This document shows positions 4,183-58,692 of a stretch of 64,000 bases of DNA, one piece after another (position 1 is the stretch's first letter; the number at the start of each line of letters is the position of its first letter). The notes beneath the pieces are model-generated. The model was not told the origin of the DNA, searched no databases, and saw only the letters and a list, made by a program, of their open reading frames with translations. Location of the stretch: positions 1,027 through 65,026 of the forward strand of contig CAZJXG010000002.1 of assembly GCA_964549965.1 (NCBI GenBank), written 5' to 3'. The stretch comes from an uncultured Sphingomonas sp. Its GTDB lineage: Bacteria; Pseudomonadota; Alphaproteobacteria; Sphingomonadales; Sphingomonadaceae. A program made the translations under genes and the position numbers.

Positions 4183-5754
4183 TCAGTTTCGCAGCTGCAC
4201 GCCGACATAGCGCGGCGGCGTATTGCCACGCTGAACGAACAGCAGCACGGTCGGCCGCTTGGCCTTCAGCGCGGCGGATATCTGGGCGGCGGCGGCCTGG
4301 ACGGTCGTCACCGGCACATTGTTGATCTGCAGGATGATGTCGCGCGGCTGGAAACCATTGGCGGCGGCATCGCTCGACGGATCGACATAATTGATCACCA
4401 CGCCCTTGAGCGTGGTGGCGACACCGAGCCGACGGGCGATATCCGGAGTGAGCGTCTGGAGGCCAAGGCCGATCGCATTGCGCGTCGCCTGATCGGGAGC
4501 GACCGGACCACCGCCCACACCGTCGTCCTGATCCTCATCCACGCCGCTGGCATTGGCGAGCTGGTCTTCGGGAGGACGTTCGCCGAGCGTGACCGTCACG
4601 GTCTTGCGCTGGCCTTCCCGGATCACCTCGATCGGCAGGCGGGCGCCCACCGGGGTTTTGCCGACGATATAGGACAAGGTGTTGTCGGGCGTGACGTCCT
4701 GGTTGTTGACCTTCACGATCACGTCGCCCTGGCGAATTCCGGCGCGCGCCGCAGCCTCGCCAGGCTCGACCCGCGCGACGATCTCGCCGCGATCCTTCGG
4801 GAGACCCAGGCTGGTGGCGATATCCTGCGTCATCGGCTGGATGCCGACGCCGAGATAGCCGCGCTTGATCCGCTCTCCGGTGCGGAGCTGATCGATGATC
4901 GGCTTTGCCTCCTCAGCGGGGATGGCGAAGCCGATGCCGACATTGCCGCCGGTTGGCGAGAAGATCGCCGTGTTGATGCCAATCACATTGCCCTGAAGAT
5001 CGAACATCGGGCCACCCGAATTGCCCTGATTGATCGAGGCATCGGTCTGAATATAGCGATCATAGGGGCCGTTGACGCCGATCGACCTGTGCAGCGCCGA
5101 CACGATACCCGCGGTCACCGTGCCGCCAAGGCCGAACGGATTGCCGATCGCGACCACCCAGTCGCCGACCCGGGTGCGGGTGGAATCGCCAAACTGGACG
5201 AAGGGCAGATTCTTCGCGTCGATCTTGAGCAGCGCCAGATCCGATGTCTGGTCGCGGCCGACGATCGTCGCCTTATATTCCTTGCGGTCGGGCAGGGTCA
5301 CGGTGATCGAACTGACCACCGCCCCGGTCCCGCCCTCGGGAGAGGCCGAAATCACGTGGTTGTTGGTGACGACATAACCGTCGGCCGAGATGATGAAGCC
5401 GGAGCCGAGCGAGGTCGCCTCGCGGGTGATCGGCTTGCCGCTGTCATCGGTCCCGCCGCCCCCGCCGCCGAAGCGGCGGAACAGTTCCTCGAAGGGAGTG
5501 CCGGAAAAGGCGTTGCCACCGTTGCGGACCTGGATCTTCTGGGTGGTGGAGATGTTGACCACCGCCGGCTGCAGCTTGGCGGCCAGATCGGCGAAGCTCA
5601 TCGGCGCGCCGGGGCGCGGTGCCTCGGCGTTGATCGAGCCGGGCGCGTTCTGCGCGACCTGCGCCCCCACGGGCTGCTGCATCGTCAGGGTTGCGGTCGC
5701 ACCACCGGCCAACAAGGCTGCGGTGATCGCATAGGCATAGCGCACTTTTGCCAA
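4183..5754 (-). CDS. DegP/HtrA (Do-family) periplasmic serine endoprotease with two PDZ domains
   Basis: 523 aa with a signal peptide. Trypsin-like motifs TNNHV and GNSGGP are present. The PDZ-like C-terminal half contains RGYLGV. It lies downstream of hflKC. Confidence 0.9.
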   Translation of the reverse strand: MAKVRYAYAITAALLAGGATATLTMQQPVGAQVAQNAPGSINAEAPRPGAPMSFADLAAKLQPAVVNISTTQKIQVRNGGNAFSGTPFEELFRRFGGGGGGTDDSGKPITREATSLGSGFIISADGYVVTNNHVISASPEGGTGAVVSSITVTLPDRKEYKATIVGRDQTSDLALLKIDAKNLPFVQFGDSTRTRVGDWVVAIGNPFGLGGTVTAGIVSALHRSIGVNGPYDRYIQTDASINQGNSGGPMFDLQGNVIGINTAIFSPTGGNVGIGFAIPAEEAKPIIDQLRTGERIKRGYLGVGIQPMTQDIATSLGLPKDRGEIVARVEPGEAAARAGIRQGDVIVKVNNQDVTPDNTLSYIVGKTPVGARLPIEVIREGQRKTVTVTLGERPPEDQLANASGVDEDQDDGVGGGPVAPDQATRNAIGLGLQTLTPDIARRLGVATTLKGVVINYVDPSSDAAANGFQPRDIILQINNVPVTTVQAAAAQISAALKAKRPTVLLFVQRGNTPPRYVGVQLRN

Positions 5755-5852
5755 CTCCTTAAAACTCCTGTCCTGCCGTTGCCGATATCCGGGGTGGTTT
5801 ATTTCGGTCCCGGTCGCTGAACCCCGCTTGAACGGTGCCGTTCCATCTATTG

Positions 5853-6722
5853 TTATCGGCGCCCGCGAAATTCGCGCAGATATTCATTATCGGGCGACAG
5901 TATCGCATTGGACGATCCGGACGCTTCATTGCCATCGGTCCCGAAGGTGAACCGATAGGACTGCATCGCCCGGTAGAAATTGTAGAAATCCGGATCCTTG
6001 TTGAAGCTTTCCGCATAGACACCGGCGGCCTGGGCGTCGGCCTCCGCCGTGATGATCTGCGCCTGCTTGCGTCCCTCAGCACGGATCGACAGCGCTTCCT
6101 GCTCGCGCGCCGTACGCATCCGGTTGAAGGCGGAATCCAGCGGGGTGCCGTCGGGAAGGTCGGCGCGCTTGATCCGCACATCGACGATCTCGGCGCCATA
6201 TTGCCGGGCCACCTTGTTGAGCCGGGTCTGGATATTGTCCATCACCGCGCCGCGTTCGGGGCTGAGCAGCGATGCGAAGGGACGCTTGCCCAGTTCGTTG
6301 CGCAGTGAGGAGCCGAGGATCGGGCGCAGCGCCTCCTCCACCCGGCGTTCGGTTCCGGCGGTTATCGACATGCGCAGCGGATCGACGATCCGGTACCGGG
6401 CATAGGCATCGACCTCGAGCCTAAGCTGATCGGTCGACAGCACCGACTGCCGTTCCATGTCGAAGTCGCGGACCCGCTTGTCGATCCAGTGTATCTCGTC
6501 GAAGAAGGGGATCTTCATGATCACCCCCGCTCCGGTCTGCCCGAAATCCTCATTGGGCTTATAGGCGTTGTACACCTTTTCGGGCTTGCCGAAGCGGACG
6601 ACCAGCGCCTGCTTCGTCTCCGGCACGACCGCGAATACGCCGTTCAACACGATCACCGCGGCAATCGCGGCAATCGCCCAACCGATCACCGTACGGCTGG
6701 CGAGATTATCGGAAACATTCAT
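5853..6722 (-). CDS. hflC: protease modulator HflC
   Basis: 289 aa SPFH/band-7 protein with an N-terminal transmembrane segment. Its start overlaps the hflK stop by 4 nt. Confidence 0.9.
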   Translation of the reverse strand: MNVSDNLASRTVIGWAIAAIAAVIVLNGVFAVVPETKQALVVRFGKPEKVYNAYKPNEDFGQTGAGVIMKIPFFDEIHWIDKRVRDFDMERQSVLSTDQLRLEVDAYARYRIVDPLRMSITAGTERRVEEALRPILGSSLRNELGKRPFASLLSPERGAVMDNIQTRLNKVARQYGAEIVDVRIKRADLPDGTPLDSAFNRMRTAREQEALSIRAEGRKQAQIITAEADAQAAGVYAESFNKDPDFYNFYRAMQSYRFTFGTDGNEASGSSNAILSPDNEYLREFRGRR

Positions 6723-55951: not shown

Positions 55952-57126
55952 CAGGGCTTCGGAAGGCGGACGGTGGCATACAGGCTCCCACCCAGGTCGG
56001 TTTTAACCGGGGGGCCGCCATAGACGTCGCGATAGAGCCCCTCGGCGCCGAGTGTGACCACCGGCGAGAGCTTCCAGTCGAGCCCGGCGCGACCGCTGAC
56101 ATATTGGCGGGTGCCGACGGTGTTCAACTGCGATGTGCTGCGCGCATAGCTGCCATTCCAGGTGACACCCACCCGCTCGCTGAGCGAACGGCGATAGCTG
56201 ACGCCGACCTGGGTACGCTCGACCGTGCCGCCTATACCCGATGCGCTGACCGAACGATCGGCGAAGGCGCAGAAATAATCCTTGGCGCCGGTATGGCACA
56301 GCTCGACCGAGGCCGCGAGACCGCGGGTGGTCCGGTCGTTTCCGGGCCCCGGAATGACCAGATCGCTGAACGAGACGCCAAGCGAGAGATCGAGCTTCCA
56401 CGTCGAGGCAAGCTGGGTCGAGAAGGTGACGGTCGGCTGCATGATCAGGGTGCTGAGACCCGGCGAATCATAGTCGATCCGATAGACCGATCCGCGTATG
56501 CCGACCTTGGAACGCGAATTGATCGCATGTTTCCAGCCGAGGCTGCCGCCGATATTGTTCGTGTCGGTGCCCGGCGGACCGCTGTCGTAGCGGGTCTGGG
56601 TATAGCCGGCATTGGCCGTGATGGTGTCCTTGGACGACGCCTGATATTCCCAGCCGCCGCTCGCAGAATAGGTATCCGCGCGGCGGCGCAGGCCGATCAG
56701 GTTGACGTCGATCGCGTCGGTCGGCTGGCCCGTGATCTGGTCGTCACCCTGGCCGATCACCTCGCTGTCATAGCGCAGCGATCCATATACGCTCAGCTTG
56801 GGCGTGATCCGCCGCTGCACCGAAAGCTCGCCGCCATATTCGTCGGAGCCGCCATAGCGCTTGAAATATTCGGTCCGGTCATAATGGCCGTCCAATATGA
56901 TCTGGCCCTTCGCATCCGCCTTGGTCAGACGCGGATTGACCGACACCTCGGCATAGGGCGAAGCGAGGTCGCTGCCCGTGCTCAGGAACGGATTCATGTC
57001 ATAGCCGAGCCGGACCTGGGTCTCGACGGTTAGCTTGGCCGGCCCCGCGAAGGCAGGCGAGCCGGCAGCCGCGATCGCGAGCGCCGCGATCCCGATCCGG
57101 GCGGAGGGGCGGAACCGGCGGATCAT
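55951..57126 (-). CDS. outer-membrane beta-barrel protein (EpsL-like)
   Basis: Signal peptide ...SPAFAG followed by alternating beta-strand pattern throughout. Translationally coupled to both flanking genes. Confidence 0.55.
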   Translation of the reverse strand: MIRRFRPSARIGIAALAIAAAGSPAFAGPAKLTVETQVRLGYDMNPFLSTGSDLASPYAEVSVNPRLTKADAKGQIILDGHYDRTEYFKRYGGSDEYGGELSVQRRITPKLSVYGSLRYDSEVIGQGDDQITGQPTDAIDVNLIGLRRRADTYSASGGWEYQASSKDTITANAGYTQTRYDSGPPGTDTNNIGGSLGWKHAINSRSKVGIRGSVYRIDYDSPGLSTLIMQPTVTFSTQLASTWKLDLSLGVSFSDLVIPGPGNDRTTRGLAASVELCHTGAKDYFCAFADRSVSASGIGGTVERTQVGVSYRRSLSERVGVTWNGSYARSTSQLNTVGTRQYVSGRAGLDWKLSPVVTLGAEGLYRDVYGGPPVKTDLGGSLYATVRLPKP

Positions 57127-57734
57127 GGGACTACCACCGTGTCACCGGGTTGCAGCTCGACGATGGCCCCCTGAAGGTCGGCCGCCGATGGCGATCCTTT
57201 CATCGCGGTATCAAGACGGACTTCGATCACCTGGATCTGCGCTCCATTCTTGCGGTAGATTTTGACCTTTGCCAGGTCGGCGAATTCAGTCGGCCCGCCG
57301 GCGACGCTGACCGCTTCCAGCACGTTCATATAATGGCCCGGAGTAAAGGCACCCGGCTGGCGGACCTTGCCGGCGACCGAAAAGGTGAGGCCACTGGGAT
57401 TCTTCACCGATACGGTCACGCGGGGCACGGAATTACGATACTGATCCGCCAGCCCGGCGACGATCACGCCTTCCAGGTCGGTCGGCAGCTTGTTGAGCGC
57501 ATCGATCCGCCCCACCAGGGGAAAGGAGACGCTACCGTCGGGCAGGACCTTGAGCACCCGCTGGAGCCGTTCGTCACCCCACACATATATCTCTATCTCA
57601 TCGCCCGGGTTGATCCTGTAAGGCTTCAGCGGGGCGGCGGCGCCGGGCGCGGGCGGCGGCGTGGCAGCGACGGCGGAGGCCGCCAGCAGGGCAGCCGCGC
57701 CGATCATGAAGCCAGCCTTGATCATCCCCCGCAT
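57123..57734 (-). CDS. polysaccharide export protein (Wza/EpsE family)
   Basis: Poly_export motif YRINPGDEIEIYVWG and an SLBB domain (VAGKVRQPG). Start at 57734 or 57725. Confidence 0.8.
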   Translation of the reverse strand: MRGMIKAGFMIGAAALLAASAVAATPPPAPGAAAPLKPYRINPGDEIEIYVWGDERLQRVLKVLPDGSVSFPLVGRIDALNKLPTDLEGVIVAGLADQYRNSVPRVTVSVKNPSGLTFSVAGKVRQPGAFTPGHYMNVLEAVSVAGGPTEFADLAKVKIYRKNGAQIQVIEVRLDTAMKGSPSAADLQGAIVELQPGDTVVVP

Positions 57735-58013
57735 ACGCGTCACTGCCCCAAACTCCCGGCCTTCCGGCTGCGCCGAAACCCGCCGGGCCGCGGTCATCGA
57801 CCGGCCACCCGACGCAGGTCCACAGCGCTGCTGCAACAAGTGCCTCAAAATCGCGGCGCTTGAAACAGAAAAAGCCTTCACAAACCGTGACTTTGCACAT
57901 GCTAACAATTGCCACACCGCGATCGTCGCATTCAGCGCCGCCATGCAGGTGAGTGCGCAAGGAGACGCAGCGTCCAGCCAGCGCGCTGTTCGGCCGACAA
58001 ATGCGTAAGACGG

Positions 58014-58346
58014 TGGTGCGGGCGGGGGGACTCGAACCCCCACAGGTCTCGCGACCTTACGGATTTTCTTACCACTTCGACTTTCGCCGCCGGGCCGGGC
58101 AGTTCCGGCACGTTCGTGGTCTGGACTATCCCTTCGCCCTATCCGCCATGCGGACGTAGGCGCTGCCCGTCTAGTCTCTACACCTTCCGCCGGAGCATGC
58201 TCCGCCGGCTTGGCTCGGGATCACCAGGAAAAGGCTTCCCCGAATTTGAGCAGTTCTGCACCGCCAGTTTCCCGGCGGGCACTCGATGCCGGAGTCCTGT
58301 TTCCCCGCTTCAAGTCCGTTGCGTCTACCAATTTCGCCACGCCCGC
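58014..58346 (-). tRNA. tRNA-Leu(UAA) gene interrupted by a group I intron
   Basis: 5' exon (58346-58312): GCGGGCGTGGCGAAATTGGTAGACGCAACGGACTT. 3' exon (58067-58014): AAAATCCGT + long variable arm GGTC-GCGA-GACC + GGGGGTTCGAGTCCCCC + CGCCCGC-A-CCA. The acceptor stem has 7/7 base pairs, the anticodon stem is ACGGA/TCCGT, and the anticodon loop is CU-UAA-AA. Confidence 0.9.
58068..58311 (-). ncRNA. group I (IC3-like) intron, 244 nt, no ORF
   Basis: Inserted after U34 and ends in G (...GGTAAG|AAAA). Core strings are CCCGAGCCAAGCC, GGAAGGTGTAGAGACTAGACGGG and GATAGTCCAG. These closely match my recollection of the cyanobacterial tRNA-Leu intron core (CCUGAGCCAAGCC, GGAAGGUGCAGAGACUCGACGGG, GAGAGUCCAA). 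Confidence 0.85.
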
Positions 58347-58413
58347 AGCGTCGCAGCCAGGTGCATAGCCACGCCTCCGCAGCCCGCCAAGCGCGAATCG
58401 CCGTCGCGCCGCC

Positions 58414-58692
58414 TCAAACGTTAAGGCGGACGCGCATTTCCTTGCCCGGCTTGAAATAGGGTACGCGCTTCGCCGAAACCGGCACTGTATCGCCAGTCCG
58501 GGGATTACGACCAACGCGAGCGCCGCGGCTGCGCGTAGAAAAGGCACCGAAACCACGAAGTTCAACGCGGCCACCCTCAGCAAGACGGCGTGTAATCGCA
58601 TCGAACACGGTGGCGACGATCTTTTCGACTTCTTTAGGCGAAAGATCGGGATTCTGCTGCGCCAGCAATTGTACCAACTCGGATCTGATCAC
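58414..58692 (-). CDS. ihfB: integration host factor subunit beta
   Basis: 92 aa: MIRSELV...[14 protein letters not shown]...[12 protein letters not shown]. Confidence 0.95.

Follow-up and report, generated by a model that had tools for sequence, protein, structure and literature searches.

The minus strand of the window (the whole 64-kb stretch of DNA analysed here) carries a tRNA-Leu(UAA) gene that is split by a group I intron. The gene lies between ihfB and a polysaccharide export gene, and the locus comprises the following features.

57123..57797, minus strand: Wza-like polysaccharide export gene, 224 aa (Poly_export and SLBB domains), downstream of the tRNA
58014..58067, minus strand: tRNA-Leu(UAA) 3′ exon, 54 nt, placed by in-silico splicing; A35 A36, anticodon-stem 3′ strand, long variable arm, T arm, acceptor 3′ strand, A73
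58068..58311, minus strand: group I intron, 244 nt, ORF-less, a bacterial tRNA intron of proteobacterial type (Rfam Intron_gpI, nhmmer profiles, covariation)
58312..58346, minus strand: tRNA-Leu(UAA) 5′ exon, 35 nt; acceptor 5′ strand, D arm, anticodon-stem 5′ strand, C32 U33 U34 (in-silico splicing gives ARAGORN tRNA-Leu(taa); the Rfam tRNA model aligns the 5′ half)
58414..58692, minus strand: ihfB, integration host factor beta, 92 aa (Pfam Bac_DNA_binding), directly upstream of the tRNA

Read along the minus strand, the gene consists of GCGGGCGUGGCGAAAUUGGUAGACGCAACGGACUU, the 244-nt insert, and AAAAUCCGUAAGGUCGCGAGACCUGUGGGGGUUCGAGUCCCCCCGCCCGCACCA. When the exons are joined in silico, ARAGORN recognizes a canonical 89-nt tRNA-Leu(taa) with a 7-bp acceptor stem (GCGGGCG/CGCCCGC), an anticodon stem (ACGGA/UCCGU), a long variable arm, the UAA anticodon, and A73; CCA is encoded in the 3′ exon (58014-58016). 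The insertion point is between U34 and A35, with U34 (58312) as U(-1) of the 5′ splice site. The intron ends in ...GGUAAG/AAAA, its terminal (omega) G being position 58068, and the predicted ligated exon junction reads ...GGACUUAAAAUCCGU... (containing CUUAAAA). A preliminary description of this DNA had proposed the split gene with its insert length, stems, variable arm, and CCA, and an insert that follows U34 and ends in G; the sequence bears out both proposals, and ARAGORN on the joined exons agrees with the first. Default ARAGORN detected no intron-less tRNA-Leu(UAA) in the 64-kb window, and the split gene is probably the sole tRNA-Leu(UAA) gene at the locus.

Two ORFs in the mechanical ORF list, 57909..58424 on the plus strand and 58221..58601 on the minus strand, cross the intron and extend far past its ends; both had already been called spurious. 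They are the only ORFs across the intron, which contains no endonuclease ORF and, at 244 nt, is too short to fit one, as expected from the earlier claim that it is ORF-less and thus without a homing endonuclease. A longer ORF, 57123..58043, runs into the tRNA 3′ exon and was rejected as an artefact of an upstream GTG; identical contigs have the Wza-like gene called as 224 aa. A simple scan for a consensus promoter or terminator was negative; a weak TTGGCG-16 nt-CTATGC can be read by eye at 58390-58363.

In Sphingomonas and allied genera, homologues of the ihfB product bear the name IHF beta, and every named nearest homologue of the adjacent IhfB belongs to the Sphingomonadaceae. The sequence thus identifies the host, as previously proposed, as a sphingomonad-like alphaproteobacterium. 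A tblastn search with the TonB-dependent receptor against plasmids gave only ~42% matches, in Burkholderiales, and is uninformative on taxonomy.

Intron fold and detection

The insert is a group I intron with helices P1-P9, a P3/P7 pseudoknot, and a terminal G. Its elements are listed below.

58282..58314, minus strand: P1; 5′ strand 58314-58310 (exon CUU and intron GA), internal guide 58286-58282 (UCGAG, intron nt 26-30)
58257..58281, minus strand: P2 hairpin; 10 bp, one bulged U, GAAA tetraloop 58271-58268; compensatory changes in 9 of 10 pairs
58123..58253, minus strand: catalytic core P3-P8a (Rfam consensus alignment, MFE fold, covariation)
58253-58248/58168-58163, minus strand: P3; 100% paired, 4 of 6 pairs compensatory
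58243-58238/58220-58215, minus strand: P4; 90% paired together with P5
58235-58233/58225-58223, minus strand: P5; 90% paired together with P4
58214-58212/58184-58182, minus strand: P6; 100% paired
58208-58200/58195-58187, minus strand: P6a
58178-58172/58128-58123, minus strand: P7; bulged A, pseudoknotted with P3, putative G-binding site
58162-58159/58138-58135, minus strand: P8; 99.5% paired, 3 of 4 pairs compensatory
58154-58150/58146-58142, minus strand: P8a
58071..58120, minus strand: P9 domain (MFE fold, covariation)
58120-58116/58075-58071, minus strand: P9; 95% paired
58112-58105/58098-58091, minus strand: P9a
58089-58086/58081-58078, minus strand: P9b; GAAA tetraloop 58085-58082, 99% paired, 4 of 4 pairs compensatory

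The MFE fold yields P1, P2, P3, P4, P5, P6a, P8, P9, P9a, and P9b; it contains every core helix except the P3/P7 pseudoknot. When the P1-P9 structure is applied to 99 aligned sequences, 93.3% of cells are paired versus 29-45% in slid controls; as the window sequence was the source of the structure, this comparison is biased toward it. Of the 72 pairs, 50 show compensatory changes across these sequences, and all 99 have the splice-site U34·G wobble. P7 is 100% paired and nearly invariant, so that its support comes from sequence conservation and covariation cannot test it. The invariance of P7 and much of the core in the comparison set arises partly because the search pattern demanded them; the pattern also required the terminal G, whose conservation there is therefore not independent evidence. 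The P1 loop holds a lineage-specific extra hairpin, visible in the alignment as an L1 insertion, which makes the intron longer than most of its relatives. The pairing suggested earlier for P1, of intron nt 26-31 (UCGAGU) with exon ACUU and intron GA, holds, including the U·G wobble, and the three core strings quoted at that time are found in the intron.

The preliminary description had named the joint lack of an Rfam Intron_gpI (RF00028) match and of a P3-P9 fold as evidence against an intron. The P3-P9 helices are mapped here, and RF00028 aligns over its full length (model 1-253; E 7.4e-5 on 551 nt), but its 26.9 bits lie under the gathering threshold of 50 bits, at which Rfam returns no match to the feature. 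According to Williams (2020, bioRxiv 10.1101/2020.01.27.920355), the Intron_gpI seed holds zero bacterial sequences, which would partly account for the low score; the cut-off given in that preprint is 18-20 bits plus split-tRNA evidence. Default ARAGORN reports 0 genes, both for the whole window and for the region alone. Its intron mode does report the split gene, but with the splice site shifted by 2 nt and the wrong identity, tRNA-Phe(gaa); on the split gene of S. panacis, the same mode returns tRNA-Ser(aga) with a misplaced boundary. Standard tools thus overlook the feature, as had been predicted, and the practical value for this genome is one of annotation: Default tools miss the gene, and spurious ORFs are called across it.

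By comparison, an nhmmer profile of 98 other split tRNA-Leu introns finds the intron with 172 bits (E 2.4e-52, 58064-58288) as its single match in the entire 64-kb window. One match at this E value excludes chance.

Distribution, inheritance, and possible mobility

Bacterial tRNA group I introns have been known as a class since 1990-1992. We found the same split arrangement at 120 or more loci among species-level genomes; hosts among the matches listed are Sphingomonas (several species), Bradyrhizobium, Caulobacter, Burkholderia, Acidobacteriota, and others, and the CUU/...G/AAAA arrangement occurs in at least 99 species genomes. Williams (2020) mapped 5,292 tRNA group I introns. The rarity implied by the preliminary description is therefore not borne out: The locus represents an overlooked annotation rather than a discovery, and split genes of this kind are common and catalogued in many soil and water bacteria. 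Since the class was mass-catalogued in 2020, the debate over an ancient or transferred tRNA-Leu intron, on which the locus had been thought to bear, is not reopened, and the locus adds little to it.

The ihfB gene is a syntenic anchor common to other Sphingomonadaceae, and its linkage to tRNA-Leu is seen at six further loci (L011, L030, L032, L054, L059, and L116). At this position downstream of ihfB, the intron is present in some Sphingomonadaceae and absent in others; in the intron-less species, the ihfB-linked gene there is an uninterrupted tRNA-Leu(UAA). Presence and absence at one syntenic locus within one family offer a clean system for the study of intron gain and loss. The relatives with IhfB 98%, 91%, and 89% identical all retain the intron; it is 83-90% identical in them, with the helices preserved, and one relative (L321) shows eight compensatory pairs and no broken pair. 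Sequence comparison thus indicates vertical inheritance of the intron within the window's own uncultured Sphingomonadaceae lineage.

Recent acquisition of an intron that is mobile now, by a trans-acting homing endonuclease, reverse splicing, or whole-tRNA-gene replacement through recombination, appears unlikely to us, though it has evidence in its favor. Across the Sphingomonadaceae, the orthologous ihfB locus has the intron in some species and lacks it in others, Sphingomonadales introns fall at several places in a neighbor-joining (NJ) tree without support values, and viral contigs and a widespread plasmid resistance module carry related split tRNA genes. However, the intron has no ORF and hence no homing endonuclease of its own, and it is found in every own-lineage relative examined (IhfB 89%-98%), diverging in step with the host. 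The sporadic pattern is fitted equally well by loss, through recombination with cDNA or with an intron-less allele. Vertical inheritance in the window's lineage therefore remains our preferred reading.

Related split tRNA-Leu genes lie on at least 63 viral contigs, among which the cyanobacterial-type pattern has no match. On resistance plasmids, a related split tRNA gene, unannotated, adjoins tmrB/aac(3)-IId, and this plasmid gene is present in ~12% of complete E. coli genomes. The non-cyanobacterial Leu lineage is seen in Alphaproteobacteria, Burkholderiales, Acidobacteriota, and Bdellovibrio-like bacteria. We tentatively suggest that the split tRNA-Leu(UAA) genes of this large non-cyanobacterial lineage, including that of the window, may be moving horizontally as whole genes. 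If spread by phages and plasmids is true and undescribed, the distribution of non-cyanobacterial Leu(UAA) introns would reflect recent transfer and not antiquity, and the copy on plasmids might also offer a clue to the donor of aac(3)-II. When the tmrB and aac(3)-IId proteins from the plasmid were compared with all retrieved loci by tblastn, no chromosomal neighbor emerged that would name the donor.

Intron lineage and known relatives

Its sequence places the intron outside the cyanobacterial lineage, in a proteobacterial-type group together with the tRNA-Arg(CCU) introns. An nhmmer profile of 10 published non-Leu bacterial tRNA introns (seed sequences from tRNAs Arg, Ile, fMet, Thr, Lys, Ser, and Met) matches it with 125 bits (E 4.4e-38, 58068-58285), the sole match in the 64-kb window; both this profile and the 98-intron Leu profile were built without the window. 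A profile of 87 cyanobacterial-type introns, which are metagenomic and were typed by signature and tRNA body and not by taxonomy, gives the window intron 39 bits over the core only, compared with 164 bits for Synechococcus Sel1 and 43-54 bits for other proteobacterial-type introns. In single-sequence nhmmer searches against the window, Sel1 reaches 20 bits, a tRNA-Arg(CCU) intron 63 bits, and Ncf2.Leu 102 bits. The core has the proteobacterial-type consensus GUAGAG, CCCGAG, and GUCCAG, where the cyanobacterial consensus is GCAGAG, CCUGAG, and GUCCAA, and the sequences of P3, P4, J6/7, P8, and P9 likewise match the proteobacterial type. In the NJ tree (no bootstrap; coarse use only), Sel1 is on a long branch outside all others, Arg introns are nested among alphaproteobacterial Leu introns, and Sphingomonadales introns are scattered over several places.

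The preliminary description had assigned the intron to the cyanobacterial type on the strength of the core strings, which are common to bacterial tRNA group I introns, and had called for an alignment and tree with cyanobacterial introns; these place Sel1 apart, at 55% identity versus 76-80% for non-cyanobacterial Leu introns. That the intron is a cyanobacterial/plastid tRNA-Leu(UAA) intron, either transferred horizontally to a sphingomonad or a relic of an ancient common intron, is accordingly very improbable, even though the tRNA, the U34/A35 insertion site (correctly described earlier as the same), and the intron class equal those in cyanobacteria and the cyanobacterial-type profile does find the core. 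ORF-lessness and a similar length are further points of likeness to the cyanobacterial intron; the differences extend to the tRNA body, with an acceptor strand GGGGGCG in the cyanobacterial type and GCGGGCG in the window. The intron at the window is thus read as proteobacterial in type, and what this adds is that these Leu introns group with proteobacterial Arg/Thr/Lys-type introns and not with cyanobacterial ones. It follows that the same tRNA site was occupied independently, or that the intron there was replaced.

An intron at this site is reportedly known from a subsurface gamma-proteobacterium, described by Vepritskiy, Vitol and Nierzwicki-Bauer in J Bacteriol in 2002. It is said to have been the first group I intron reported from this position of a proteobacterial tRNA-Leu(UAA) gene and to be related to proteobacterial tRNA introns, not cyanobacterial ones; its host is of another class than that of the window.

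Among published introns, Ncf2.Leu.3Ug, a non-cyanobacterial Leu.3Ug intron in the seed alignment of Williams (2020), resembles that of the window in its tRNA, splice site (CUU/...g/AAAA), and helices, with 77% identity (nhmmer, 102 bits). Its nearest relatives among the loci found here are Sphingomonadales. Non-cyanobacterial Leu.3Ug introns are typically 200-240 nt, whereas that of the window, with its longer P1 loop and extra hairpin, has 244 nt; its P8 internal loop also deviates from the CCUAAG...UAUGG receptor motif of many relatives. The Agrobacterium-type tRNA-Arg(CCU) introns (Rur1.Arg.5Ug and Bbo3.Arg.5Ug in the Williams seed) and the Azoarcus tRNA-Ile(CAU) intron have the same small architecture, with GAAA loops on P2 and P9 and no P5abc. 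Rur1.Arg.5Ug (63 bits) is identical to the window in the P3 strands CUGCUC/GGGCAG and in the J6/7-P7 string GUAGAGACU; an Azoarcus-type intron scores 27 bits. Unlike the window intron, both kinds reside in other tRNAs, at an anticodon-loop site two nucleotides further 3′ (in the numbering of Williams 2020, position 5 for the Arg-type site and position 3 for that of the window). According to Williams (2020), the GISSD database assigns this group of small bacterial tRNA introns to subgroup IC3.

Proposed splicing and function

Judging from the sequence, we consider it very probable that the tRNA-Leu(UAA) gene is functional, with a 244-nt ORF-less group I intron inserted in its anticodon loop after U34 and before A35. 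Splicing would follow the established group I pathway. The precursor may be transcribed from a weak promoter of its own or jointly with ihfB. The intron would fold into P1-P9, the guide UCGAG pairing with exon CUU and intron GA to present the U34·G wobble, and an exogenous guanosine bound in P7 would then attack after U34. The terminal G (58068) would next take the same P7 site, and the freed 3′-OH of U34 would attack after it, ligating the exons into the UAA anticodon loop and releasing the intron. In P2 and P9b, the GAAA loops appear to be positioned for the tertiary contacts known from the Azoarcus intron. By analogy with the Anabaena intron, the anticodon stem, instead of a P10 helix, probably keeps the exons together.

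That the gene is instead a disrupted pseudogene, its splicing lost and tRNA-Leu(UAA) supplied by another gene, is highly improbable: The tRNA census covers the 64-kb window only and the Rfam score is below threshold, but the exons are intact and canonical, every core helix is intact, the U·G pair and the terminal G are in place, own-lineage relatives preserve the helices by compensatory substitutions while the loops diverge, and at least 99 species share the arrangement. The plain tRNA-Leu(UAA) held by intron-less species at the same locus fits the split gene as its orthologous working copy.

Anatomy and detection of the split tRNA gene

On the minus strand of the window, GCGGGCGUGGCGAAAUUGGUAGACGCAACGGACUU is followed by a 244-nt insert and then by AAAAUCCGUAAGGUCGCGAGACCUGUGGGGGUUCGAGUCCCCCCGCCCGCACCA, an arrangement that lies immediately downstream from the gene for the beta subunit of integration host factor (ihfB):

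58414-58692, minus strand, ihfB, immediately upstream of tRNA-Leu
58346-58312, minus strand, tRNA-Leu exon 1
58311-58068, minus strand, insert (intron), 244 nt
58067-58014, minus strand, tRNA-Leu exon 2

Joined in silico, the exons give an 89-nt tRNA-Leu(taa) (ARAGORN) with a 7-bp acceptor stem, anticodon stem ACGGA/UCCGU, loop CUUAAAA, a long variable arm, A73, and an encoded CCA. The insert begins after U34, ends in G, and reads UCGAGU at intron nucleotides 26-31. Strand reading, in-silico splicing, and ARAGORN bear out every sequence statement that the preliminary description made about this split tRNA-Leu(UAA), and the two open reading frames it named as spurious are both present in the mechanical ORF list. 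It had also claimed that automated finders can easily miss the gene, and so they do: ARAGORN at defaults reports no tRNA in the whole 64-kb window, and Rfam at its gathering threshold returns nothing at the insert. The intron mode of ARAGORN detects the split gene (window 58064-58317; also comparison loci L309/L310) but places the splice site 2 nt too far 3′, naming the product tRNA-Phe(gaa) in the window and tRNA-Ser(aga) in Sphingomonas panacis. Boundary errors of this kind were corrected by splice-site rescoring in an earlier survey (Williams 2020; bioRxiv 10.1101/2020.01.27.920355). The ORF call that overlaps the 3′ exon, 57123..58043, over-extends a 224-aa wza-like gene.

Intron class, structure, and proposed splicing

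At relaxed thresholds, the Rfam Intron_gpI model (RF00028) matches end to end (model 1-253) at 58105-58295 with 26.9 bits (E 7.4e-5, 551 nt searched). Of the two checks proposed with the group I call, the Rfam match thus falls short of the curated 50-bit cut-off, while the fold, with P7 placed by hand, does give the P1-P9 helices. The Rfam seed lacks any bacterial sequence, and 18-20 bits were accepted for matches inside a split tRNA (Williams 2020). Profiles that exclude the window score far higher: one of 98 other split tRNA-Leu introns has a single match in the window, at 58064-58288 (172 bits, E 2.4e-52), and one of ten published bacterial tRNA introns from the Williams 2020 seed (Arg, Ile, fMet, Thr, Lys, Ser, and Met, no Leu) reaches 125 bits (E 4.4e-38).

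The minimum-free-energy fold of the precursor contains P1, P2, P3, P4, P5, P6a, P8, P9, P9a, and P9b together with the tRNA anticodon stem; only the P7 pseudoknot was added by hand. We aligned the window intron with 98 distinct, cleanly resolved homologs of 190-330 nt, all of the form CUU/...G/AAAA (slashes, splice sites), drawn from at least 120 loci in bacterial genomes. In this MAFFT alignment, which is imperfect across variable hairpins, and for a structure derived from the window sequence itself, 93.3% of cells form standard pairs, vs. 29%-45% with partners slid by 1-3 columns. Compensatory changes occur in 50 of 72 pairs, and 500 shuffles all fell short of the values observed. All 99 sequences have the U·G wobble at the 5′ splice site; P7 and the terminal G are also invariant, but were preset by the search pattern and are not independent evidence. 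By all sequence-level criteria save the Rfam cut-off, the insert qualifies as a genuine group I intron, as the profiles, fold, and covariation agree. The outermost P5 pair (alignment columns 98/126) is mostly A·C, with G·U in the window and in eight further sequences; this resembles an isosteric A+·C/G·U exchange rather than a true mismatch.

From this anatomy we infer the standard two-step group I pathway. Exogenous guanosine would attack 3′ of U34, which the P1 U·G wobble keeps in place; the terminal G (58068) would then take the place of guanosine in the P7 site, and exon ligation would restore the loop CUUAAAA. A P10 helix is implausible, since AAAA finds no pairing partner in the nucleotides that lie 5′ of the guide sequence. 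For the Anabaena intron, the title of Zaug et al. (1993), as cited in PMC3984707, assigns exon alignment to the anticodon stem, and by analogy this stem probably replaces P10 here. The GAAA loops of P2 and P9b are nearly invariant across the alignment and, by analogy with Azoarcus, are likely tertiary anchors. However, the P8 internal loop of the window (CCUACG/GAUAGG) differs from the canonical CCUAAG/UAUGG receptor of many relatives, and the tertiary contact there is therefore uncertain.

Lineage and distribution in bacteria

The preliminary description assigned the intron to the cyanobacterial type. For comparison, metagenomes were scanned with a Synechococcus-type signature, GCAGAGACU.GACGGGAGC ... 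GUCCAA ... G/AAAAUCC, which gave 114 loci, 108 of them resolving into tRNA-Leu genes with acceptor GGGGGCG; the 87 unique introns are called cyanobacterial by signature and tRNA body, not by taxonomy.

Scores of intron profiles and single queries (Sel1, Synechococcus tRNA-Leu intron; Ncf2, Leu.3Ug intron of the Williams seed)
87-intron cyanobacterial-type profile vs. Sel1: 164 bits
87-intron profile vs. window, core only: 39 bits
87-intron profile vs. Ncf2, Azoarcus-type Ile, and Arg(CCU) introns: 43-54 bits
Ncf2.Leu on window: 102 bits
Arg(CCU) intron on window: 63 bits
Thr intron on window: 63 bits
Azoarcus-type Ile intron on window: 27 bits
Sel1 on window: 20 bits

The core strings behind the assignment are common to the whole intron class. 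In the strings that differ between lineages, the window has the proteobacterial versions (GUAGAG, CCCGAG, GUCCAG) and not the cyanobacterial ones (GCAGAG, CCUGAG, GUCCAA); P3 CUGCUC/GGGCAG and P9 ACCAC/GUGGU are further proteobacterial marks. A neighbor-joining tree, which carries no support values, places Sel1 on a long branch outside all others and nests two Arg(CCU) introns within the alphaproteobacterial Leu introns. Judged on sequence, the window intron belongs to the proteobacterial-type lineage; with 39 bits in the core against 164 for Sel1, the cyanobacterial label does not hold.

Nor is the intron rare or novel, as had been supposed. Searching one genome per GTDB species for the J6/7-P7-P3′ core followed by GUCCAG and then G/AAAAUCC yielded at least 120 loci; a script proposed two tRNA-Leu halves in 114 among the 120 matches listed, a few of these heuristic calls being wrong. 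Hosts among the matches listed include Sphingomonas yantingensis, S. canadensis, Sphingomonas sp. PP-F2F-G114-C0414, Sphingobium, Croceibacterium, Bradyrhizobium, Rhizobium, Caulobacter, Brevundimonas, Phenylobacterium, Rhodobacteraceae, Azospirillum, Reyranella, Acidocella, Methylocystis, Burkholderia, Rhodoferax, Mycoavidus, Bdellovibrio-like bacteria, and many Acidobacteriota. A tRNA-Leu(UAA) intron was reportedly described in a gamma-proteobacterium by Vepritskiy et al. in 2002. The closest of the matches listed are 76%-80% identical to the window intron; Ncf2.Leu.3Ug is 77% identical to it and has its own nearest relatives, among the matches listed, in Sphingomonadales (83%-86%). The Williams 2020 survey counted 5292 tRNA group I introns in ~80,000 genomes, with Leu.3Ug as one of four classical settings and 72 Leu introns, in Proteobacteria only, having C at position −1. 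The impression of rarity probably arose because reviews still confine such introns to "cyanobacteria and a few alpha- and beta-proteobacteria" (PMC4033280, PMC11408192). The window intron is a member of an already known, widespread kind, at a locus that is probably unannotated.

At the ihfB locus, the named nearest homologs of the window IhfB are all Sphingomonadaceae (78%-83% identity: S. panacis, S. aracearum, S. changnyeongensis, S. flavalba, Stakelama, and Sphingosinithalassobacter), in keeping with the sphingomonad-like host first proposed; metagenomic homologs reach 88%-98%. The host lineage thus falls within Sphingomonadaceae. The split locus recurs at 100% identity on contigs of independent sequencing runs, and six Sphingomonadales loci among the matches listed share the ihfB-tRNA-Leu linkage. 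Two assemblies of S. panacis carry the intron, as do the closest uncultured relatives of the window (IhfB 98%, 91%, and 89% identical), which also share the downstream wza. An uninterrupted tRNA-Leu(taa) of 86-87 nt occupies the same place in Sphingosinithalassobacter sp. CS137, Stakelama tenebrarum, S. changnyeongensis, and S. aracearum.

State of tRNA-Leu downstream from ihfB (L numbers, fetched comparison loci)
Plain tRNA-Leu(taa), four named species: L311 1823-1909; L313 1887-1973; L315 1850-1935; L322 1858-1943
Split tRNA-Leu, S. panacis and uncultured relatives of the window: L309/L310, L317-L321; window 58014-58346

Presence and absence thus alternate at one orthologous locus within Sphingomonadaceae. 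Since all close relatives examined have the intron and its occurrence elsewhere is patchy, it appears stably inherited in the lineage of the window and sporadic across the family, which losses or gains could each explain. Alphaproteobacterial tRNA-Arg(CCU) introns and cyanobacterial Leu introns show the same pattern. That the locus is a decaying pseudogene is argued against by the close relatives, whose introns have diverged to 83%-90% identity with the helices kept through compensatory changes (eight compensatory and no broken pairs in the uncultured relative L321, 12-13 compensatory pairs in S. panacis).

Related split tRNA genes on viral contigs and plasmids

More unusual than the intron of the window itself are related split genes on viral contigs and plasmids. 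The scan pattern matched 69 IMG/VR viral contigs (L126-L194), and 63 of these yield split tRNA genes whose anticodon is UAA. Their introns are ~200 nt and their AT-rich tRNA bodies are unlike those of the bacterial-genome set; several have no encoded CCA, and some (e.g., L134, L166, L175, L183, and L194) have a short variable arm that is not of the Leu type. Host tRNAs at the ends of prophages may account for some of these genes. According to a 2014 review, all phage group I introns then known sat in protein-coding genes. The intron core also matches unannotated stretches of Gordonia phage Daredevil (NC_048021.1 41852-42010, 76% over 168 nt) and of a 595-kb uncultured phage (LR756511.1 409177-409322), both probably further group I introns.

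On plasmid pCTX-M3, the stretch between ISCfr1 and IS26 carries a seemingly intact, unannotated split tRNA-Leu(UAA) adjacent to tmrB and aac(3)-IId:

NC_004464.2 61823-62121 (5001-5299 of fetched locus L125), split tRNA-Leu(UAA)

Its 213-nt group I intron is of the same type as that of the window (165 bits with the Leu-intron profile); the spliced form is called as tRNA-Leu(taa). This gene is found on 1276 PLSDB plasmids, likewise unannotated next to tmrB and aac(3)-IId, and, at ≥99% identity, in 636 of 5426 complete Escherichia coli genomes (589 plasmid and 82 chromosomal places). A literature search limited to CC-licensed papers found none combining tmrB, tRNA, and intron. The gene may mark the source of the aac(3)-II module, a donor outside the enterobacteria. 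In a Proteobacteria metagenome-assembled genome (L005), a split tRNA-Leu is complete at 5517-5827, and a second, partial copy lies ~300 nt away on the opposite strand at 6120-6285; this copy comprises exon 1 and the 5′ portion of the intron and shares 90% identity with the plasmid-borne gene.
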